Below are positions 22,130-35,873 of a stretch of DNA of 64,000 bases, piece by piece. The stretch lies in NCBI RefSeq assembly GCF_988243305.1, contig NZ_OZ547136.1; one strand, written 5' to 3'. The notes beneath the pieces are model-generated. The model was not told the origin of the DNA. It was given only the letters and a program-made list of their open reading frames with translations, and searched no databases. A program made the translations under genes and the position numbers. The number at the start of each line of letters is the position of its first letter. The first letter of the stretch is position 1.

Positions 22130-23332
22130 ATGGCAGTATTGACGGATACGAAAGCAAGACATATCAAACCTGATGACAAACCATTGCCCCATGGGGGAAT
22201 TACCGGACTGACCCTTCATCCTTCTTCAGTAAAGGGGCGGGGGAAATGGGTTTTTCGTTATGTAAGTCCGGTGACACAAAAAAGACGTAATGCTGGATTG
22301 GGAACTTACCCAGAGGTCAGTATTGCTGAAGCTGCACGTACTGCCCGGATAATGCGAGAGCAACTTGCTGCAGGTGATGATCCTCTGGAGATTAAAAAGG
22401 CTGAATCTGAGAAAGTCGCTATCCCAACATTTGCCGATGCAGCCAGGCGTGTACATGCAGAACTGTCTCCTGGATGGGAAAATCCAAAGCATGTAAGGCA
22501 GTGGTTATCGACGCTTGAGAATTACGCGTTTCCTCAACTGGGAGCAAAAACGCTGGATTCGATTACGGCTGCGGACGTGGCAGAAACACTGCGTCCAGTC
22601 TGGTTAACCTTATCAGAAACGGCAAGCCGGGTTAAACAGCGCATTCATGTTGTTATGCAGTGGGGATGGGCGCACGGTTTTTGTGTAGCAAATCCTGTTG
22701 ATGTGGTTGACCATTTGCTTCCTCAGCAGACAAGAGGACGTGATGAACACCAACCCGCAATGCCCTGGAGGCAGTTACCGCTTTTTGTGGCGACCAGTGT
22801 GTATACCGATGAACCTTATAATGTTACCCGCGCACTGTTATTAATGGTGATACTTACAGCAACTCGCTCGGGCGAAGCCAGGGGAATGCGCTGGGCTGAA
22901 ATTGATTTTCATAAGCGGGTATGGACTATACCTGCAGAAAGAATGAAAGCTAGGCTACAGCATCGTGTTCCTTTATCCCGGCAGGCTATTTACATTCTGG
23001 AAAATATACGTGGCCTGCATGATGAACTGGTGTTCCCTTCACCCAGAAAGCAGCAGATCCTTTCCGATATGGTGTTGACAAGTTTTCTGCGTAAAAAGAA
23101 AGCCGTCAGTGACATTCCGGGGCGAGTTGCCACGGCACATGGTTTTCGCTCAACATTCAGGGACTGGTGTAGCGAACAGGGGTATTCGCGGGATCTGGCG
23201 GAAAGGGCGCTCGCTCATACGCTGAAAAATAAGGTTGAGGCGGCATATCATCGTACTGATCTACTGGAGCAGCGTGTACCGATGATGCAGGCATGGGCGG
23301 ATTATGTGATGTCTCAAATTGTGAATAAATAA
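22130..23332 (+). CDS. P4-type tyrosine integrase
   Basis: 400-aa ORF with arm-binding-type N-terminus and C-terminal catalytic region (HGFRSTF ... LAH ... Y) as in P4/CP4-57-type integrases. Confidence 0.85.
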   Translation: MAVLTDTKARHIKPDDKPLPHGGITGLTLHPSSVKGRGKWVFRYVSPVTQKRRNAGLGTYPEVSIAEAARTARIMREQLAAGDDPLEIKKAESEKVAIPTFADAARRVHAELSPGWENPKHVRQWLSTLENYAFPQLGAKTLDSITAADVAETLRPVWLTLSETASRVKQRIHVVMQWGWAHGFCVANPVDVVDHLLPQQTRGRDEHQPAMPWRQLPLFVATSVYTDEPYNVTRALLLMVILTATRSGEARGMRWAEIDFHKRVWTIPAERMKARLQHRVPLSRQAIYILENIRGLHDELVFPSPRKQQILSDMVLTSFLRKKKAVSDIPGRVATAHGFRSTFRDWCSEQGYSRDLAERALAHTLKNKVEAAYHRTDLLEQRVPMMQAWADYVMSQIVNK

Positions 23333-25476: not shown

Positions 25477-26239
25477 GGTGATGCCTTCTGACGATAGATT
25501 AATGTTGTATTCTATTGGTATCTGGAGACCATATGGCAACAGTTACAGTATATTCTCCCCGCTGTAATTCCTATAAAGTGTACCGTTATGATCACAGCAC
25601 CTCAGATCATGAGCGTTTCCAGTGCTAATCCTGCAAACGTGTATTTCAACTGAATTACATCTACGAAACCCGAAAACCAGGCATTAAAGAGCAAATTGTT
25701 GAAATGGTTCATAACGGAGCCGGGGGTCGCGATAGCTCCAGAACGCTGAAGGTGGATATCAACACCGTCATTCTCACTTTAAAAAACGCTCACCACGTAA
25801 AGTAACCATATCTCCAGCCGCCAGTGTCGATGTGGCACTTATCTGTGAACTTGATGAACAATGGAGTTTTGTCGAAAACAAAGCTCGTCAGCAGTGGCAC
25901 TGGTACGCGTATAAGACCAAAGCTGACGGTGTGCTGGCTTACACTTTTGGTCCTCGCACTGATGAAACATGCCGTGAGTTGCCGGAATTCCTGAAGCCAT
26001 TCTCCGCAGGCATGATAACCAGAGACAACCGGAGCAGTTATACCAGAGAAATGCCACAGGATAAGCATCTTGTCGGCAAGATATTTACCCGGCGCATTGA
26101 GCGCAACAATCTGACACTTCGTACTCACATCAAACGACCTGCCCGGAAAACGATTTGCTTTTTACGCTCCCTGGAAATTCACGAAAAGCCATTGGTTCAT
26201 TTATCGAAAACACATGTACTACTGACAGGAGTCATTACC
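25477..26239 (+). mobile_element. IS1-family element, divergent and degenerate
   Basis: IS1-like terminal inverted repeats (ggtgatgcc ... ggagtcattacc); InsA-like and InsB-like reading frames (ICELDEQW ... RIERNNL) broken by stop codons. Confidence 0.6.
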
Positions 26240-26435
26240 AGGGCCTCTTTTGCTGTTTTTTTGCCATGAATGATAATGAGAATCGACAGCGATAAGGGAA
26301 AAGTAAAATAACACTAATGCTGTCGTTTTCTATCATATTGATTTTTAATTATTTATTGTCTTTTTTCTCAACCCATTTTTTTACGCAGACAAATTTACCC
26401 GGGGAATACAAACTGTAACGACAGTTCACCACACT

Positions 26436-26744
26436 ATGGGGGATAAAATGCCAGATCAATCCGGACACTGCAGGACTCCTTCACGCATCTTACGGATGCC
26501 TGAACTGAGCCAATTGTTAGGTATATCTCGTTCGACAATTTACGAAAAAATGAATCCGTTATCGAAATACTACGATGCAACCTTCCCCAGGCCGGTACGT
26601 CTTGGTAGTGGTTCTGTGGGCTGGCGTTCATCAGCTATTGACGAATGGCTTACTTTACATACTGTACCTGCCAGATCAGCAGTCAAAGGTGTTAATGACG
26701 AAGTGAGACATACGCTTTCTTCAGATATGACCATGAGCAGATAA
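26436..26744 (+). CDS. AlpA-family phage/island transcriptional regulator
   Basis: MPELSQLLGISRSTIYEKMNP HTH typical of AlpA-like proteins; true start may be internal. Confidence 0.7.
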   Translation: MGDKMPDQSGHCRTPSRILRMPELSQLLGISRSTIYEKMNPLSKYYDATFPRPVRLGSGSVGWRSSAIDEWLTLHTVPARSAVKGVNDEVRHTLSSDMTMSR

Positions 26745-26852
26745 GTTTTTGTCATCACGTGATCACCTCAGGAGGAAAAAGAAGCATAAGAACAATTTAG
26801 CCAGAAGTTTAATTGATAAACAAAATTTCCAGCATTCATTGTTGAAAGAGCA

Positions 26853-26906
26853 GCTATTGTCGCTATTGTCGCTATTGTCGCTATTGTCGCTATTGTCGCT
26901 ATTGTA
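26853..26906. repeat. Tandem 9-bp repeat array (gctattgtc, six units, last degenerate)
   Basis: Directly visible; a related degenerate copy lies at ~27351–27394. Confidence 0.85.
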
Positions 26907-26937
26907 GCGGTAATTGCTGCTATAACCGAAACGTATT

Positions 26938-27204
26938 ATGAAAAAGGAAGCATTTATGCCTTACATCAAACCGGATATGCCGTATTCAGTATATGCATGA
27001 CCATCAATGATAGGGAAGGCAATAATTAAAGCTCAATACAATAAACAAGTACCTCTGACTCTGGTTGCAATGTCAGTATTAACAGCGATGTCAATTGCCT
27101 GTCAGAATCAGGTTGACGTATGCAGTCCCGGAAATTTACGTGGGGCCGTTAATATTTACACTATGGTTCTGGAGAAAGGGAAAAGACCGGGGGAAAGGTA
27201 TTAG
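26938..27204 (+). pseudogene. Degenerate partial duplicate of the YfjI-like gene N-terminus
   Basis: MKKEAFMPYIKP ... then ORF 27007..27204 (AIIKAQYNKQVPLTLVAMSVLTAMSIACQNQVDVCSPGNL) parallels residues 1–70 of the downstream gene, with a frame break. Confidence 0.55.
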
Positions 27205-27404
27205 TGAAATAATTTCCGGAGGTATTAAGAATGAGAAATATGAATGATATTTCGTGGTGAATAATACAGTCTTCACTGAATTAACCTTATCGGTTTATTA
27301 AACATCAGATCTACAAATGCTCTGTATTTCTCAGAGCATCAGGTCTGAATAGCAGCTATTTTCGCTATTGTAGCGGGATTTGCTGCTATTTTACTAACCC
27401 ATTA

Positions 27405-28856
27405 ATGAAAAGAGAGGCTTTTATGTGCTTACTTGCACCAGAAAATCCTTATCCGATATATGCACTACCACCGCTGGTGAGAAATGCAATAATTGAAACT
27501 CAAAAAAATACACAGGCACCTTTGGCTATGGTGGCAACATCCGCATTAACAGCGATCTCAATTGCCTGTCAGAATCAGATTGACGTGTGCAGACCTGGAA
27601 ATTTACATGGGCCTGTTAATCTTTACTCTCTGATTCTGGCTGATTCCGGTGAAAGGAAAACGACCGTGGATAAAGTGTTTATGAAAGCATTTTATCTCAG
27701 GGATGAAGCCCTGGCGGATGAATACGCGAAACTGGTTGAGAATTACAGTACAGAAAAGGAAATATGGGAGCAAAAACAAAAAGCGCTGGAATCAAAATTT
27801 CATAAAGAGATTCGTGCCGGTAAAGATTACAAGGCAACAGAATCAGAGCTTGAAACGCATCTGAATAAACCTCCTGTTCCGCCGCAGATACGTCGAACAA
27901 TTTTTAATGAGACAACGATAGAGGGAATGTTAAAATATTACTCCGATAGCAATCGCTCTTTTGCTCTTGTATCCAGTGAAGGGGGGGTAATTTTTGACAG
28001 CCGGGCCATGAGTAAACTGGGAATTATTAACACTTTGTGGGATGGAGGTTCTCTTTTCATCGACAGGAAATCATCTCCCGGAATTAATTTGAAGGAGCCA
28101 AGACTGACGATATCGGTGATGATTCAGCCTGATGTTTACCACAAAGGTTTTTGTACGCGAAAAAAAGAAATTGTGAAAACGTCAGGACATCATGCAAGGT
28201 TTTTGATGTGTCAACCAACATCAACGCAGGGGACAAGGATAATAACCGGAGATAATTATTCATCACAGTATCAGGATTTGTTTGAAGAGAGGATCAATGA
28301 GCTTATTGATGAAAGTCTGGCGATGAGTGGTGAACGACGTTGCCTTCACTTTTCTCCTCAGGCTGCCAGAATCTGGACGGATTATTACAATGATGTGGAA
28401 TCGAAGCTGGGGGGATTGGGGCCTTTAAGACATTGCCGGGAATATGCTGCTAAAAATGCAGAGTATATGGCAAGACTGGCAGGACTTATTTACCATTCGA
28501 GCGGTGAAGAGGGGGAGATTTCCCCTTACACTGCAGAAATGGCGAGAGAATTAGCAATATGGTACGGTAATGAGTATGTGCGGTTGTCTAATCCGTTAAC
28601 TTTTGACAACTCTGCCCTGACCGTACCTGTGCGACTCATTCCAGAGGAGCTTGAACTTTTCAACTGGATAAAAAGCTATTGTATTGAGAAGGGGATCCTC
28701 TGTATGAAAAAAAATGACATTTTACAGCGTGGTCCGAACCGTTTCCGGAAAAAGGATAAAATCAACTGGTTACTGGATTTACTGTATGAACAAAACAGAG
28801 TTGTACCGGTTATTGAGGGAAAAACGTTGTGTGTCGCACCTAACTTTGACCTCTGA
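27405..28856 (+). CDS. YfjI-like island protein (DUF3987-like)
   Basis: 483-aa ORF matching the YfjI family of CP4-57-type elements by recalled similarity and position after alpA. Confidence 0.7.
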   Translation: MKREAFMCLLAPENPYPIYALPPLVRNAIIETQKNTQAPLAMVATSALTAISIACQNQIDVCRPGNLHGPVNLYSLILADSGERKTTVDKVFMKAFYLRDEALADEYAKLVENYSTEKEIWEQKQKALESKFHKEIRAGKDYKATESELETHLNKPPVPPQIRRTIFNETTIEGMLKYYSDSNRSFALVSSEGGVIFDSRAMSKLGIINTLWDGGSLFIDRKSSPGINLKEPRLTISVMIQPDVYHKGFCTRKKEIVKTSGHHARFLMCQPTSTQGTRIITGDNYSSQYQDLFEERINELIDESLAMSGERRCLHFSPQAARIWTDYYNDVESKLGGLGPLRHCREYAAKNAEYMARLAGLIYHSSGEEGEISPYTAEMARELAIWYGNEYVRLSNPLTFDNSALTVPVRLIPEELELFNWIKSYCIEKGILCMKKNDILQRGPNRFRKKDKINWLLDLLYEQNRVVPVIEGKTLCVAPNFDL

Positions 28857-29676
28857 ACGACTTAATCGTTGAGTACATATAGTCTCCTCTGCTACTTGCG
28901 GAGGAGACTAATGTCTTTACCATGTCAGCGTTGTATTAGAAAACTCTGGTACAGGTCAGTCAGTAAATATAACTGGTGTAACCACTATTTACTATTGGAT
29001 AGAGTGTTGCTCAGGATATTGTCGGCTTTAGTCTGAGGTGAGGTGGGGCCTTCATTGTTTTCGTGTTCAATAAATAATTTAGGTTAATTAGTATTATTAG
29101 TGGAAGTTATGTGATCTGTTATGTTGTCTTGTACGCACTTAACACTGGTTACGTACCGGAACACTATTAGAGTATGTTATGGCTCTGTTACAGTTTATAG
29201 GTATGAAAAAATATAATCTTTCCTGTATGAAATAATATTCTTATGGTGTGTGGGGTATGGTCTGTATACCATCATTTTTATGGTGAAGTTAAATATCTGT
29301 AGAGGCCTTAAGCTGGGTCGCTGTTTTTACTTAATGGTACAGAAGTATTAATAGCGGTGTTGCCTGTGGCTACCCGATACTGGCTTTTGTGAATGTCAGA
29401 TTACTTCCTGTAAGTGATTGAATGGTACTTCCTTAAACTCAATTCTATGAGGTGTGTTTTTACCATTGTAATTCGTACTGGTCCTCAGTTTAAGTGAGTC
29501 TTACTGTACTCTGAAATATTACCTCTTTGGAGTAATGAGGTAATACGAAACAGTTTTATCAGGTTGTCTGTGCTGCTGGTTACCTCGTTTATTAATGCCG
29601 CGGTACGGCGTTTCTGTACTCTCAGTATTTATGTAATTCCACCTTCCTGTAACTTTTATAAAGTAAGGACTATAAA

Positions 29677-30240
29677 ATGTATAATGCTAATCCCAATTAC
29701 GAAATGGACTTCATGATTCTGAAAGACGTGAATGAACACATGGAAGGTCTGTTTCAACGTTTTTCTAAACTGTTACCTTTCAGAATTGATTTTGCCTACA
29801 GGAAAGACACGCCCAGTTTTGGTCATTCCTGTAGGCACAGTATGTGTATTGAAATGCACCGCTTACTTAGTGAAACCCAAACGATGCTGGCGGGATATTA
29901 CTGGGTAATGGAATATACGTCAAACAAGGGACTTCATATTCATTTTATCGGCTACTTGGATGGGCAACGTCACAAGAAATTTTATCGGATATCCAGGCAA
30001 CTGGGAGATATCTGGAGTCGGATCACGGAAGGGGAGGGTTATTTTCACCTGTGCAGTACTAAAGACAAATACTCGGTGCGTATCGATCACGTGATTCACT
30101 ATAGTGATAAGTCTGCGGTAGACGGTTTACGTTACGCCCTTAGCTACCTGGCTAAACAGGATCAGAAAGAACACGGTATTATTCTGGGCCGTAGCAGGCT
30201 TCCCGAAAAAAGCAACCGGGGCCGACCACGACATAACTGA
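29677..30240 (+). CDS. YfjJ/YagK-like protein (inovirus Gp2-type putative replication initiator)
   Basis: 187-aa ORF; family assignment from recalled similarity and position after the YfjI-like gene. Confidence 0.6.
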   Translation: MYNANPNYEMDFMILKDVNEHMEGLFQRFSKLLPFRIDFAYRKDTPSFGHSCRHSMCIEMHRLLSETQTMLAGYYWVMEYTSNKGLHIHFIGYLDGQRHKKFYRISRQLGDIWSRITEGEGYFHLCSTKDKYSVRIDHVIHYSDKSAVDGLRYALSYLAKQDQKEHGIILGRSRLPEKSNRGRPRHN

Positions 30241-30902
30241 ATTACAGTTGTATTAGGTATTAAAATTAAGTTTCTGTAAGTTGTTGGGAGGTGCTTGAGT
30301 TAATAGGCAGAAGAGGGCGGGGCGCTTTGTCATCAGTGTAGGGGACCCGAATTTCTGCCGTGGTACCTCAGTGGATCGGATACAGGTAACGAATATGGTT
30401 CATAAATCTGACAGTGATGAATTAGCTGCACTGAGGGCAAACATAACTTGAAGCTTATGGGATTGAATGGCGACGTAAACCGCAGAGTCCTGTGCAGTGC
30501 GTTTCCGTATTATCCACGGATGAGAAAGTTGCGTTATTTTGTCGACTGTTTCGCGGGCGTGATGATGTATGGGCCCTTCGATGGGAAAGCAAAACCAGCG
30601 GCAAATCAGGGTACTTGCGGGCCTGTGCTAACGAATGGCAGCCGGGAATAGCGGTAAACTCCGGATAAAATGTGGGGACTGCGCTCACCGTCAGTTGATC
30701 CCTGTATCTGATCTCATCATCTACCACTACACGGTTTAACGGGGCCGCGTCATCTCGGCGTTGCCCGATAAATTCTTTTCTACGTATAATAACCAGAATG
30801 AACGTGTAAAACACCATAGTATTCAGAACTATAAACATCGAAACCTGCCATATTGACCAGAATAAATGACCTTATTTTTACTGAAATTTAAGGAGAACAC
30901 CG

Positions 30903-33900
30903 TTGGAAGTAGAAATGTGGGATGGTGGCTTACAAGAACAGGAAGTATTGGCTATCGAGAAAATAAAAGCTGCTTTTTCAGTCAACGTATCTAAGCCTGA
31001 CAAGCCTTTCCGTAGCGGTTCAATTAGTGAGCAGCTAAAAAGCTATGGTTTTATCGGCAATGAAATGTTCCCTTGGAAAGGTTATGCAGGTTTTCGATTT
31101 GTTGAGGCAAAAAAAGAGGGGGAATTCGATTTAGTTATTGTAACACACTGCAACGTGATCATTGTTGAACTGAAAGACTGGAACCATCAGCCTGTAACCG
31201 CACGCGGAGATACTTGGTTTAAAGGCGATAAGAACATGGGGCGCTCGCCAGTAAGCGTGACTCGTAGCAAAAAATTCATGCTGGACAAAAAACTCAAGCG
31301 TCTGGTAGACCGTTTTACGAACAAAGGCTATATCCCGATTGTTCATTTTTTTGTTGTGATGACCGGCAATGCAGATTTCAGCGCGCTGCCGGAGGAACAA
31401 CGGCGCCATACGATCTCGTTAAAAGATTTCCTGAAGTTTGCCGATCGCGGGAGCTTCAATAACTATTTCAAACCGCACCCAGCTACCAAGGTTCTTAACA
31501 AGGATTTCCATCTTTTCGATGATTTGTTCCTAGGGCCTCAGACGGCACCAAAAGCCTTGAGAGTTAATGGCTATGAAGCTAATGATATGATTTTCGAACA
31601 TCCTAAAAAGGTGTATCGAGAATATCTGGCAAAATCTGAGATATCAACGAACAGCGAAGCGCTACTCAGAGTATGGAATTTTAGAAATATAACGGGAACG
31701 AAAGCGAATACCCCGGAAGGACGAGCTCAGATTGTTTCACGTGAGCGCGAAGTGTTACAGCACATCAATCACCAGAATCGTGACCTGTATAACCACTGTC
31801 TCAGGTCTTTGACGAGTTTTCAGAAAGACGAGGTGACGGCCGAGTATAGCGAAGTCTACGAAGTTCCGCCGGGTCATGTCCGGTTTAATGAGTTTATCGG
31901 AAAATATGGTAAGAACTTTTCTGATATGGACCGCTTGAATGTGGTGAAACTGCTCATTGCAAAGTTTAGTGATCTCCATGAGATGAAAATTGCGCACAGG
32001 GATGTCGCCGATCACAGTCTGTGGATTTCACCTTCAAAAGAAGTTGCTCTTTCGAACTTTATTTCGGCTTACCACCAGCCAGCCGGAACGGTTGGCGATT
32101 ACCGTAAGCTTTTATCCGTAGGTGCAGTCCACGTAAAAGACATGCTTGATAAGGGCGAGCTTACGCCTTTTCAGCAAGATGTTCATACTCTGGGCCTTGT
32201 CGCCTGGCACTTATTTAGCGGTATGCGCATGTCGCCAAAGAGTCTGGAGAAAGTACAGGACAACATGCTAAACAGCCAGCACTGGTATTCATCTGTATTA
32301 CGGGATGCCGTTGCCGCAAAATTCACTTCTGCAACAGAATTCTTTGATGCCCTGAAACAAGCCGAACCTGCTGGCAAGGATATTCCAACATTTGATGATA
32401 CTGAGCTTGACCCTTACCGACATGCTATCAATCACGCTCGTCAATACCCGGAAGACGATGGCTTTCAGTTTCAGGTCGAAACAGTCGACAAAGAAGTCTA
32501 TATCTCGAAAGGAAGGCTCGTGAAGGCTTGGCTGAATGTTGGGGGACAGGGATACGATCCGTCAATTAATTTCCAGGTTCTGAAGTTTTTAAAGCAGGTT
32601 GAGCGGCTTTCTTCAGTTAAAACAACGTATCTACCTCAAATTCGTGAATTCGGTATCGCATCAAAATCATCAAGCCTATATATGGTCACGGATCAGGTAC
32701 AGGGAGAAACCTGGGATAAAATAGCGGTCCCCGATGATGAAAAAATCGACCTCATTGGTAAGTTTGTCGCCGCCGTTGAGCACTTACATGGTCTGGGTGT
32801 TTCTCACGGGGACATCCACCCTGGCAATGTGATATTTGAGACACAGAGCCGTTTGCTTTTTCTCATCGATATCCCCGATTTTTCACCGTCCGGTGACGAA
32901 CCTAAAAATCACAGTTACAGCCCTGAATACATTGATAATTGTACTTCTTTTGAACGTGACAACTATGCAGTGATGAAGATGTCCTGCGAGTTGCTAGGCA
33001 TGTCATGGGGGCTGGAATCAGACATTTATCCGACAATCGCGAATGCTATCCGAGCAGAGCTGGAAGATCCGGTTTTTGGGTTTAAGGATTTAGGCCGCTT
33101 TAAAAAAGCGATAGATAGTAATGACCTGGTGCCAGAACAAGACCTGATAGAGATTACTGCAGGAAATGCCGATGAAATAATCTCTATTCTGCCTGATAAC
33201 GGGCATCTGTATGTCAAAGTTAAGTCAAATCCTAAAGCGCCAGCTGAAGTAAATGTGACTTTCTCTGGGATTGGTGGCAGTTTTACTGCGGTGTTCAACA
33301 AAGATCAGAAGACGCTGGTTCATGGCTTCAGGCCACGGGCTCGCGTCACAATTCGTAAGCAAGATATTGATGAAAGCCAGTTCGAAATTGATACTGGCAT
33401 CAAGATTATTCCCGGCAGTCCGCAGGATCTGTCGGCGTTGACAGTATTGCTTAATGAAGAAGAATCTTTTGCGCGGGCAATCGAGTTGATTGCCGCAACT
33501 GAAGATGTTCAGGTACAAGAGCCACTTACGCTTCAGCTAAAAGATACCTTTGCAAGGCTTGATAAGCAGACGCTTGAACCTTCTTTAAGAGAAGTGCTGG
33601 AAATCCCAACAGTGAAACTGTGGCGCGCCATTCTGGATACTGAAACAGAATCTTATCCAAACATTGAAATCAGCGGTGAAGTGGTCCCGGTTGCAGATGC
33701 TCATGGAGAGCTTCTTCTCCCTTACTCTGCTGATGTTGATCCACTCGGTGCTTTCAGAAGTAGTGATGAAGTCGAAGCCTTACAGGTCGATCAGGAAGGT
33801 GTTGAGCGATTTATTGGTGAAGTGTCACTTAAGAAGTCAGAGCTCAAAGAGATTCGTCTTGTCAAAGTTAGTTCAGCAGCCTTCAAGCTGAAGGATTCTG

Positions 33901-35873
33901 ATATTGTCTTCTTCCGTACAAGGCCGACTCGTGCATCTTATCAGAAACGTAAACGCGCACTGGAACGTCTCCTAGATCGAGAAAGTGTGCTGCCTGACTT
34001 AATTGACTTGTTCGATCCATCCTGCAAACAGGCGGCTCAAAATTATGGTATCACTCTCAGCGATACCGATTTTGCCAGATACGACCGTGAAGATCAGCAC
34101 GGAAACAAGATCAGTCTGAATGAACAGCAAAGAAAGGCGTTTAACAAACTGGTCAATAATGGCCCTCTCTCCCTGCTTCAGGGGCCACCGGGGACCGGTA
34201 AAACCGAGTTCATCGCGGCCTTTGTTCACTACCTGATCGAGAAACAGAATACCAAACGCATTTTACTGGTCAGCCAGTCACACGAGGCTGTGAATACAGC
34301 GGCCGAGCGTATCAGAAAGCATTGTTCCCGGCTTGGTACAGAGTTGGACGTTGTCAGGTTCAGCAACCGAGAGGGAGCCGTTTCCCCTGGCTTAAAAGAT
34401 GTGTACTCACACGCAATCACAACAGAGAAGCGCGAACTCTTCAATGCTGAAATTAAGTACCGTGTTGAAGCATTGAGTGAAGCTATTGGTCTGGAGCCGG
34501 GATTTATTTCGGGTGTTGTTCTTGCAGAGCTCAATTTGTTCAGACAAATCGATCACCTTGAGAAATTGCTCTATCAGGTTAACAATTTAACGGATTCAAA
34601 TGAGAGCAATGAACTGAAAGATATTGCAGTCGAACTCGATTTTTCCATCCGCTCTAAGCTGAGTCAGGAGTATGGGATTAACTTGGACAATGGCGTGAAG
34701 GTCTCAGCAGCAAAAGACATTCTGATTTCCAAGCTATGTACAGAGTATGGTGTCAGACCTGATGAGGCAAGACGAGTAAAAGCATTAGCTAAAATATCCC
34801 GTGATATGCAGGATGCTATGTCGGGAGAGCGAGTGAACCTGGACGAGTTTTATTCGCGCTCCAGGCAGTTAGTGGCTGGCACATGCGTTGGTATTGGACA
34901 AGGGCACATTGGCATTCAGGAGAATATCTATGACTGGGTGATTATTGATGAGGCGGCGCGCTCGATTTCAAGTGAGCTGGCCATTGCAATGCAGTCAGCC
35001 CGGCGTGTCCTGTTGGTGGGTGACCACATGCAGCTTCCTCCATTGTACTCAGATGCCCACAAGGCGGCATTAGCGAGGAAGCTGGGTATCAATAACTCCC
35101 GCACTGAAATTGACGAGGTATTACGAAGTGACTTTGCCCGAGCCTTCAACTCTGCTTATGGTGCGCAGACGAGTGCAGCTTTGATGACCCAGTATCGTAT
35201 GGCTCCACCGATTGGTAATCTCGTATCGAAGACGTTTTATGACGGGAAGCTTCTGAATGGAGTACGGGCAATTCCGGATGTCTATCAGCAAGCTCCGGAA
35301 GCGTTACGTAGCGTTGTAACCTGGCTTGATACTGCTAATCAGGGCCACCGAGCACATCATCTTGAAGATCGCGGAACAAGCATTTACAACCGATGTGAAG
35401 CTGACGAGATTATTTCTGTTCTTAAACAGGTGTCAGAGAATGAAGAATTTGTCGCTAAGCTTTCAAAACTTGTTAGCAAAGATGAAGCCGCTATCGGCGT
35501 GATATGTATGTATGCCGAACAAAAGCGGTTACTCCGTCAGAAATTCAATCAGGAAATCTGGAGCGAGGGATTTAAGGACATTGTTAAAATTGACACTGTT
35601 GACAGTTATCAGGGAAAGGAAAATCGGATCATTATCCTGTCACTGACGCGTTCGGATAAGCAGCATAGCCCAGGTTTCTTACGCGTTCCAAACCGTATAA
35701 ATGTCGCGATGTCACGCGCAATGGATCGACTGTTGATTGTGGGTAATGCCGATATCTGGAAGGGAAACAATAAAGAATTGCCATTAGGCTACGTTGTAAG
35801 TTATATGGCTGAGCGAGGTCAGGAAGCTGGATACAGGTTCCTCTCTGCTCAGCAGGGAGGCAAAAAGAAATGA
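30903..35873 (+). CDS. Giant multidomain protein: NERD-like nuclease region, two protein-kinase-like regions, UPF1-like SF1 helicase (candidate defence effector)
   Basis: 1656-aa ORF; aggaga SD 6 nt before the TTG start (alternative ATG at 30915); FDLVIVTHCNVIIVELKDW; IAHRDVADHSLWI and VSHGDIHPGNVIF...LIDIPDF; helicase motifs GPPGTGKT, VIIDEAARS, LLVGDHMQLPP, VDSYQGKE, RINVAMSRA. Confidence 0.8.
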   Translation: MEVEMWDGGLQEQEVLAIEKIKAAFSVNVSKPDKPFRSGSISEQLKSYGFIGNEMFPWKGYAGFRFVEAKKEGEFDLVIVTHCNVIIVELKDWNHQPVTARGDTWFKGDKNMGRSPVSVTRSKKFMLDKKLKRLVDRFTNKGYIPIVHFFVVMTGNADFSALPEEQRRHTISLKDFLKFADRGSFNNYFKPHPATKVLNKDFHLFDDLFLGPQTAPKALRVNGYEANDMIFEHPKKVYREYLAKSEISTNSEALLRVWNFRNITGTKANTPEGRAQIVSREREVLQHINHQNRDLYNHCLRSLTSFQKDEVTAEYSEVYEVPPGHVRFNEFIGKYGKNFSDMDRLNVVKLLIAKFSDLHEMKIAHRDVADHSLWISPSKEVALSNFISAYHQPAGTVGDYRKLLSVGAVHVKDMLDKGELTPFQQDVHTLGLVAWHLFSGMRMSPKSLEKVQDNMLNSQHWYSSVLRDAVAAKFTSATEFFDALKQAEPAGKDIPTFDDTELDPYRHAINHARQYPEDDGFQFQVETVDKEVYISKGRLVKAWLNVGGQGYDPSINFQVLKFLKQVERLSSVKTTYLPQIREFGIASKSSSLYMVTDQVQGETWDKIAVPDDEKIDLIGKFVAAVEHLHGLGVSHGDIHPGNVIFETQSRLLFLIDIPDFSPSGDEPKNHSYSPEYIDNCTSFERDNYAVMKMSCELLGMSWGLESDIYPTIANAIRAELEDPVFGFKDLGRFKKAIDSNDLVPEQDLIEITAGNADEIISILPDNGHLYVKVKSNPKAPAEVNVTFSGIGGSFTAVFNKDQKTLVHGFRPRARVTIRKQDIDESQFEIDTGIKIIPGSPQDLSALTVLLNEEESFARAIELIAATEDVQVQEPLTLQLKDTFARLDKQTLEPSLREVLEIPTVKLWRAILDTETESYPNIEISGEVVPVADAHGELLLPYSADVDPLGAFRSSDEVEALQVDQEGVERFIGEVSLKKSELKEIRLVKVSSAAFKLKDSDIVFFRTRPTRASYQKRKRALERLLDRESVLPDLIDLFDPSCKQAAQNYGITLSDTDFARYDREDQHGNKISLNEQQRKAFNKLVNNGPLSLLQGPPGTGKTEFIAAFVHYLIEKQNTKRILLVSQSHEAVNTAAERIRKHCSRLGTELDVVRFSNREGAVSPGLKDVYSHAITTEKRELFNAEIKYRVEALSEAIGLEPGFISGVVLAELNLFRQIDHLEKLLYQVNNLTDSNESNELKDIAVELDFSIRSKLSQEYGINLDNGVKVSAAKDILISKLCTEYGVRPDEARRVKALAKISRDMQDAMSGERVNLDEFYSRSRQLVAGTCVGIGQGHIGIQENIYDWVIIDEAARSISSELAIAMQSARRVLLVGDHMQLPPLYSDAHKAALARKLGINNSRTEIDEVLRSDFARAFNSAYGAQTSAALMTQYRMAPPIGNLVSKTFYDGKLLNGVRAIPDVYQQAPEALRSVVTWLDTANQGHRAHHLEDRGTSIYNRCEADEIISVLKQVSENEEFVAKLSKLVSKDEAAIGVICMYAEQKRLLRQKFNQEIWSEGFKDIVKIDTVDSYQGKENRIIILSLTRSDKQHSPGFLRVPNRINVAMSRAMDRLLIVGNADIWKGNNKELPLGYVVSYMAERGQEAGYRFLSAQQGGKKK

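Follow-up and report, generated by a model that had tools for sequence, protein, structure and literature searches.

We analysed a non-coding gap within an integrase-type island that lies in a 64,000-nt stretch of contig NZ_OZ547136.1 (NCBI RefSeq assembly GCF_988243305.1); the whole stretch is called the window below, and all positions refer to it. The gap (28857-29676, + strand) extends from the stop codon of a YfjI-family gene (27405-28856, + strand; Pfam PF13148, DUF3987, E = 5.3e-84), the upstream neighbor that carries the RefSeq name 'YfjI family protein' in homologous islands, to the start codon of a YagK/YfjJ-family gene (29677-30240, + strand; 187 aa), annotated in RefSeq as 'inovirus-type Gp2 protein' and hereafter called the Gp2-like gene. 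A reading made from the letters of the DNA (hereafter the sequence-only reading) had described this spacer as about 0.8 kb of AT-rich DNA with no convincing open reading frame (ORF), and had proposed that it could hold an origin, a small RNA or regulatory sites. The description holds in each respect: the coordinates are confirmed, the GC content is 0.372 vs. 0.49 in the window, and the longest ORFs encode 55, 50, 33 and 31 aa. These ORFs are not conserved, because they are broken by frameshifts and stop codons in related islands (intact in 1 of 8, 0 of 18, 1 of 18 and 2 of 18 homologues, respectively). On the + strand, T exceeds A (AT skew about -0.2) and G exceeds C (GC skew up to +0.28). Among the full-length matches listed from 1,566 matching E. 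coli records, no RefSeq coding sequence (CDS) or pseudogene is annotated under the gap, with the exceptions of the end of yfjI in two rows and a 'hypothetical protein' in an insertion-bearing copy (H40).

The gap sequence is present in 1,562-1,585 of the 5,426 complete E. coli genomes (~29%), at identities from 100% down to less than 80%, and was not found in the phage collection. A long gap is not a property of every yfjI-yfjJ pair, given that just 152 nt separate the two genes in the K-12 island CP4-57. The sequence also occurs in records labeled as plasmids, and two of these were examined and rejected as evidence of autonomous replication: M11 plasmid B is a chromosomal piece, because it carries proA, phoE, dinB and fadE, and pE16EC0562-1 consists of island DNA rich in insertion sequences (IS). 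An 85-nt match beside a phage terminase fragment (H84) was likewise set aside, because it is what an IS has left of this same island, near ecpR.

When 16 distinct Escherichia copies are aligned, the gap proves to be a composite intergenic region, made of two independent halves rather than one unit. The first ~210 nt (28857-29065, + strand) form a 3' flank that travels with yfjI: this segment is present in all islands with the YfjI context and is swapped for unrelated sequence where a 611-aa hypothetical protein sits upstream instead (E2348/69, L064 and L066); a Pfam search of this alternative upstream protein returned no family. Record H30 contains only the first 101 nt of the gap. The last ~610 nt are kept together with the Gp2-like gene across the different upstream contexts (YfjI, the unrelated 611-aa protein and others), and the homology common to these contexts begins within a few nucleotides of a 22-nt conserved block. 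The block is followed by a hypervariable GT-rich stretch (29098-29340, + strand) with short direct repeats (GTTATGTGATCT/GTTATGTTGTCT at 29106-29129) and insertions or deletions of tens to hundreds of nucleotides; the window itself lacks ~100-215 nt that most relatives have between 29112 and 29113 (fewer in L003, L008 and L017). The remainder is a proximal leader (29341-29676, + strand) that is colinear in all Escherichia copies, with insertions and deletions of 1-2 nt and two lineage-specific deletions, of 8 nt (L003/L008) and 13 nt (L065). The mean pairwise identity is 0.827 in the hypervariable middle part and 0.898 in the last 335 nt of the gap, compared to 0.877 at 4-fold degenerate sites and 0.970 at codon positions 1 and 2 of the adjacent CDS. 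Because these identities are near those of 4-fold synonymous sites, conservation of the gap apart from the block is about that of unconstrained DNA of such age. The sequence-only reading had named absence of conservation or transcription across related islands as the finding that would refute its proposal; conservation in the literal sense is present, yet most of it is no greater than at synonymous sites.

The conserved block, AATTTAGGTTAATTAGTATTAT (29076-29097, + strand), consists of an A/T palindrome-like left half and a -10-like hexamer, TATTAT (29092-29097). A search of 599,551 nt of collected loci (roughly 70 sequences), plus the window, identified the block in 40 loci from more than 10 enterobacterial genera, once per locus. 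All matches are on the strand of the Gp2-like gene and all are upstream of that gene, except in L058, and the 64-kb window contains one copy vs. 0.04 expected by chance. The genera fetched include Erwinia, Yersinia, Citrobacter, Edaphovirga, Budvicia, Buttiauxella, Brenneria, Lelliottia, Serratia, Kluyvera and Cedecea, with Gp2-like proteins at 33-58% identity; in these other genera the block has the consensus AAGGTTAATT[AG][AG]TATTAT, while the DNA around it cannot be aligned. In a sister clade, GGGTTTTTAGTATAAT occupies the position of the block, with the hexamer a perfect TATAAT; in one clade the hexamer is preceded by TGg, the extended -10 form; and GGTATTATATAATGG is found ~175 nt upstream of K-12 yagK. 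A short motif 3' of the block, GRAGT (29103-29107), is also conserved, at 5-6 nt past the hexamer in most clades and 3 nt in the TGG clade. In Escherichia, 583-803 nt separate the block from the start codon; elsewhere, ~120-220 nt lie between it and the start of the tblastn match (1-10 codons into the gene). The block is clearly the sole strongly constrained element of the gap. Directly 3' of it are repeats of the GTTATG or GTGGTAT type, which we considered as Rep-specific iterons and rejected on the grounds that the repeat type does not track the protein sequence: L062 and L065 encode identical proteins beside different repeats, and near-identical repeats also occur beside different proteins. 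In L058 (position 4582; Enterobacter wuhouensis), a block-like sequence, TAGGTTAATTAATATAAT, is located ~1 kb downstream of the Gp2-like gene, where it may sit before a paralogue.

The other element of note belongs to the first half of the gap. The sequence-only reading had reported a hairpin after the stop codon of the YfjI-like gene, and this structure is real: a stem-loop at 28880-28910 (+ strand), starting 23 nt past the stop codon, with arms TAGTCTCCTCTGC/GCGGAGGAGACTA that form 13 pairs (7 of them G-C) around a 5-nt loop, has a minimum free energy of -28.1 kcal/mol (z = -7.1), and none of 200 shuffles is as stable. No other hairpin-like site in the gap surpasses its shuffles. The stem-loop is called by a consensus terminator scan; its 3' side has a weak T-tract, ATGTCTTT, and the tail, ATGTCTTTAC, satisfies the 5-of-8 T rule of the scan, with a longest uninterrupted T run of 3. 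By eye, the stem in 06_3288 has two substitutions after which pairing is kept only as G.U on the + strand, and the stem in Combat2C1/ESM1.4 has one substitution that yields an A.C at the third pair from the base. In its GC-containing 13-bp stem-loop near a stop codon and its T-containing tail, this site resembles intrinsic terminators; it differs from them in the weakness of the T-tract and could act mainly as a 3' stabiliser. We infer a role for the stem-loop in ending transcription or in stabilising the transcript at its 3' end.

The gene that accompanies the block encodes a protein with Pfam matches below threshold only (PF23343 and PF11726). When 26 homologues with identities as low as 35% are aligned, R36xD38 is invariant, H87xH89 and Y153 are conserved in at least 90% of the sequences, and Y157, A159 and K160 are invariant; the C-terminus contains an invariant RGRPR, the core of an AT-hook, and the predicted fold is closest to the nucleases of SIRV1 ORF119 and parvovirus NS1. 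Because of the RxD, HxH and YxxxYxxK motifs in the alignment, we treat the Gp2-like protein as a predicted HUH (Rep-like) endonuclease with a C-terminal AT-hook. Neither an HUH description of this family nor any described function was found in the literature searched, where the family appears solely as a frequent core gene of the Pseudomonas islands considered below. The family is core to integrase-AlpA islands and satellites in Enterobacterales, and apparently in Pseudomonas as well.

The account of the gap that we favor, and to which we assign about an even chance, is a terminator, followed by a factor-dependent promoter/operator, followed by a long drifting leader. The segment from 28857 to ~29065 would be the 3' end of an alpA-yfjI transcription unit, and the DNA from ~29066 onward would be the region that controls the Gp2-like HUH gene from upstream. 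The block would be the core of a promoter unable to work alone, with the -10-like TATTAT and a purine-rich start region 6-10 nt downstream, and would be overlapped by an A/T palindrome-like protein-binding site placed as for a spacer-binding or class-II factor; the candidate binders encoded by the island are an AlpA-type helix-turn-helix (HTH) protein and the AT-hook-bearing Gp2-like protein itself. On this account, the block and the ATG would be separated by a long 5' leader of ~580 nt that is subject to near-neutral drift, includes the GT-rich stretch, which is prone to slippage, and at its end weakly occludes the ribosome-binding site.

Several features of the block are consistent with this account, as are the modular make-up of the gap, the near-neutral drift of its other parts and the lack of any alternative content. 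The block keeps its orientation and its position upstream of the gene. Most loci have TATTAT as the -10 hexamer, the variant clade has TATAAT, and GRAGT is placed where the start site would fall. In the wider family, the downstream sequence looks like a 5' untranslated region, because in many other genera an A-run is followed by a strong hairpin that sequesters the Shine-Dalgarno (SD) sequence (z about -2 to -5, with the probability of pairing at the SD mostly 0.6-0.98). Other observations weigh against it. At the 16-18-nt spacing, the best match to a -35 element in the window is 2/6, and the mean match in 21 loci is 2.33 compared to 2.55 at control positions, with 1 of the 21 loci reaching 4/6; because it lacks a -35, the block is not a self-sufficient promoter, and the consensus promoter scan made no + strand call at this site. 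At -11, where an A is normally critical, several lineages have G or T (TGTTAT, TGTAAT and TTTAAT), and an invariant part in the position of the 'spacer' is atypical of a plain promoter. The leader is G/T-rich in Escherichia, the opposite of several short leaders of other genera, which look C-rich by eye. The SD-sequestering hairpin of the window is also no better than chance: UCCU (29645-29648) pairs weakly with the SD sequence AGGA (29666-29669), which lies 8 nt before the ATG, at -4.5 kcal/mol (z = 0.3).

With these points included, the features of the block fit a promoter that needs a bound factor. The likeness is to factor-dependent sigma-70 promoters (class II, MerR-type and extended -10), which the block recalls in its -10-like hexamer, the TG in one clade, the lack of a usable -35, the invariant palindrome-like sequence directly 5' of the hexamer, and the presence of an AlpA-type HTH gene on the island; it differs from them in the variable -11 position, and the start site, the binder and the regulation are putative here. 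The AlpA antiterminator of P. aeruginosa has its site between the -35 and -10 elements and recognises GGGACG (PMC9371919). We considered antitermination of this kind and retained it as an analogy only, in view of the different recognition sequence and the much longer protein (functional residues up to 142 vs. 102 aa in the island protein). A differential RNA-seq data set for O157:H7 Sakai (GSE143631) is cited in PMC7547250, and Term-seq data from the same study exist.

A different placement of the promoter is improbable in our estimate, namely that a working promoter of the Gp2-like gene lies near the ATG, that the block is another binding site (for silencing or a nucleoid protein) and that most of the gap is an untranscribed spacer. 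Such an arrangement would account for the missing -35 and for the distance of ~600-800 nt between block and gene in Escherichia, of which the middle part is dispensable. AT-rich horizontally acquired DNA is a typical target of H-NS. The consensus scan, however, found no convincing + strand promoter nearer to the gene, the block is strictly oriented and carries a -10-like hexamer in all clades, and only ~120-220 nt separate the block from the gene in other genera.

The properties of the Gp2-like protein raise the main rival possibility, which we regard as unlikely, that the block is the DNA target of the neighboring HUH endonuclease, that is, a rolling-circle nick or recognition site, or a site akin to an origin of transfer (oriT), used after excision of the island. 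HUH enzymes generally act on a strand-specific site beside their own gene, and the block is strictly strand-specific, adjacent to the gene and located at a recombination breakpoint; it is far more conserved than the surroundings of the protein, and it has no -35. On the protein side, the Rep-type motifs and the Rep-like fold agree with such a role, and the invariant RGRPR AT-hook suits an A/T-rich target. Support also comes from Pseudomonas tmRNA islands, which are transduced by jumbo phage: the Gp2-like family is a frequent core gene beside alpA in these islands, whose excised form circularises or forms concatemers (PMC12595487). Under this interpretation the block may overlap the promoter of the gene itself, as in many Rep systems. 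A promoter/operator and an HUH target site are compatible and not mutually exclusive, and one can tentatively picture the block plus the gene as a rolling-circle replication or single-strand transfer module of the very common 'cryptic prophage' islands, with the promoter overlap providing self-control; we consider this combined module unlikely, too.

Other observations speak against a target site. No stable hairpin presents the block, as the fold of the region 29066-29125 has an energy of -3.0 kcal/mol (z = +1.24); the variant clade has lost the A/T inverted repeat; the repeats beside the block do not covary with the protein, as L062 and L065 demonstrate; and there is no second block in the 64-kb window to act as a terminus. 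The Gp2-like gene is often disrupted by IS elements or truncated, and many of its homologues in databases are truncated. In the collections searched, no small plasmid or phage was found to have a member of the family as its replicase: among the matches listed from a tblastn search of plasmids (106 records) there was no small rolling-circle plasmid, the plasmid matches being large plasmids or chromosomal pieces deposited as plasmids, and only two distant phage matches were obtained. In comparison with rolling-circle double-strand origins and the Rep-binding regions of CRESS-DNA viruses, the block is similarly A/T-rich, strand-specific and upstream of an HUH gene, with variable repeats beside it; in contrast, the gap has no stem-loop at this site, no covariation of the repeats and no autonomous replicon that carries the family, and nicking is putative. 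The block core, TAGTATTAT/TAATATTAT, resembles the CRESS nonanucleotides, TAGTATTAC/TAATATTAC, a resemblance of value as a lead only. The same applies to two other likenesses: that to the f1 gene II nick site (shared TAGTGGA), whose TAGTGG part varies from genus to genus, and that to CTTGATA of pC194/phiX174, of which TTGATA occurs in few loci only.

The origin proposed in the sequence-only reading would, in its theta-type form, make the gap the origin for the DUF3987 (YfjI) replication protein, as in PICI and SaPI satellites, which have their origin immediately 3' of the replication gene. We consider this very unlikely. The gap does adjoin a DUF3987 gene, it is AT-rich, and it includes the short direct repeats at 29106-29129; moreover, a DUF3987 'primase' is required for replication of PICMI satellites (PMC10803314). 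Nevertheless, the gap contains no match to the DnaA box (TTATCCACA or TTATNCACA) on either strand and a single GATC. There are no tandem repeats and no direct repeats with at least three copies: the repeat families are two-copy only, with units of 9-17 nt, and TRF finds none. Furthermore, the repeat-bearing part goes with the Gp2-like gene and not with yfjI, with which only the first ~210 nt co-occur, and this part is hypervariable and partly deleted in the window; the short repeats beside the block covary with neither flanking protein, and the short spacing in K-12 CP4-57 also stands against an origin. The island thus shares with the PICI, SaPI and PICMI systems an int-alpA-DUF3987 core followed by a large non-coding region, and differs from them in that the gap has no iteron sets flanking an AT-rich core and that most of the non-coding DNA belongs to the downstream gene.

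The small RNA option fares no better, and we judge it highly unlikely that the gap is the gene of an independent small or non-coding RNA. In its favor, the gap is long, free of ORFs and retained in 1,562-1,585 of the 5,426 complete genomes; it has three terminator-like sites vs. 0.6 expected, and the - strand is mildly more structured than shuffles (z = -2.4). The block is also overlapped by a promoter-like - strand site (29122-29093; ATAACA-18-AATAAT), whose -35, in the hypervariable part, is not conserved. A scan of Rfam 15, which the sequence-only reading had suggested as a check, returned no match in the gap at E <= 1, and its only matches over 26000-31500 were two to miRNAs, both due to chance, on a tandem repeat that lies beyond the gap. 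The + strand folds no better than shuffles (z = -0.17), two of the three terminator-like sites do not surpass their shuffles and, in relatives, are missing or changed, the divergence is close to that of synonymous sites, and large insertions and deletions are present. Inverted repeats gather uncompensated mismatches, as judged by eye (e.g., TATTACCTC...GAGGTAATA at 29517-29545). A conserved RNA structure of the leader was rejected on similar grounds: no compensatory changes are seen by eye in the Escherichia alignment, and covariation is ~0 in a seven-sequence set that includes Brenneria, Lelliottia and Serratia. The published Hfq-bound small RNAs of SpLE1 were also considered and placed elsewhere, tens of kb away as estimated from their Sakai coordinates (Esr41/EcOnc14 between z1181 and z1182 at 1,422,407; EcOnc40 at 1,397,649; EcOnc41 at 1,418,246) and from the estimated position of the gap.

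The gap is an ordinary spacer composed of a terminator and an upstream region, with most of its bulk unconstrained. The sequence-only reading was right only in the weakest of its options, regulatory sites, which is borne out by the terminator-type hairpin after yfjI and by the cross-genus cis element upstream of the Gp2-like gene; the theta-type origin and the small RNA are unsupported, and genome annotation should list the gap neither as an origin nor as a small RNA locus. The part worth keeping is the 22-nt sequence that is strictly linked to YagK/YfjJ/Gp2-like genes across enterobacterial genera. These genes belong to the core of islands of the CP4-57 type and the SpLE1/OI-43 type and of phage-transduced defence islands, and a known cis site offers a handle both on whether such islands replicate or move as single strands and on how the defence cargo downstream of the Gp2-like gene is switched on. 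The block, which goes with an uncharacterised HUH/AT-hook family, is on present evidence one more instance of an established type of element.

Cargo of this kind is probably present in the window. Downstream of the Gp2-like gene, a 1656-aa protein (30903-35873) combines NERD, protein-kinase and SF1 helicase (AAA_11/AAA_12) domains and is probably a defence gene, because it has partial matches to the PglW, MAD6 and PLuB models. In other strains, the slot 3' of the Gp2-like gene is occupied by TOTE primase, DEAD-box helicase, zinc-ribbon proteins or KAP NTPase. In three loci from other genera (L011, 6001-7556; L013; and L015), the Gp2-like gene is directly followed by alpA and a small unknown gene, and is divergent from a gene set comprising DUF932, antirestriction, RadC and CbeA-CbtA genes. 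In E. coli O157:H7 PV15-279 (L001, 12818-14694), IS1203 splits the Gp2-like gene beside an identical copy of the gap.

With respect to short sequences within the gap, GTAC occurs 10 times vs. 5.2 expected, a marginal excess, and CTGTA occurs 10 times (e.g., at 29223, 29408 and 29647) vs. 3.1 expected, with 7 of the 10 on the + strand and with CTTCCTGTAA included twice. CCTGTA repeats are also enriched in some leaders of other clades and upstream of K-12 yagK. Because CTGTA and CCTGTA are missing from many clades, we did not retain them as a feature of the family.

Upstream of yfjI, the integrase-type island includes an integrase ORF (22130-23332), followed by a 605-aa ORF on the opposite strand and by the AlpA-type HTH gene (26436-26744; PF05930; 102 aa). 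An IS1 remnant with InsB-like ORFs (25790-26269) lies between the 605-aa gene and the alpA-like gene, a placement that is the same in the SpLE1-type island of O157. The interval from the alpA-like gene to yfjI contains a perfect tandem repeat of a 9-nt unit (GCTATTGTC x5.9; 26853-26905), which is the source of an LLS-repeat ORF and of the two chance Rfam miRNA matches mentioned above. Just 5' of the full-length yfjI, a 65-aa ORF (27007-27204) is a duplicate of the N-terminal part of YfjI, and the equivalent position in other strains is annotated as a partial DUF3987 pseudogene.

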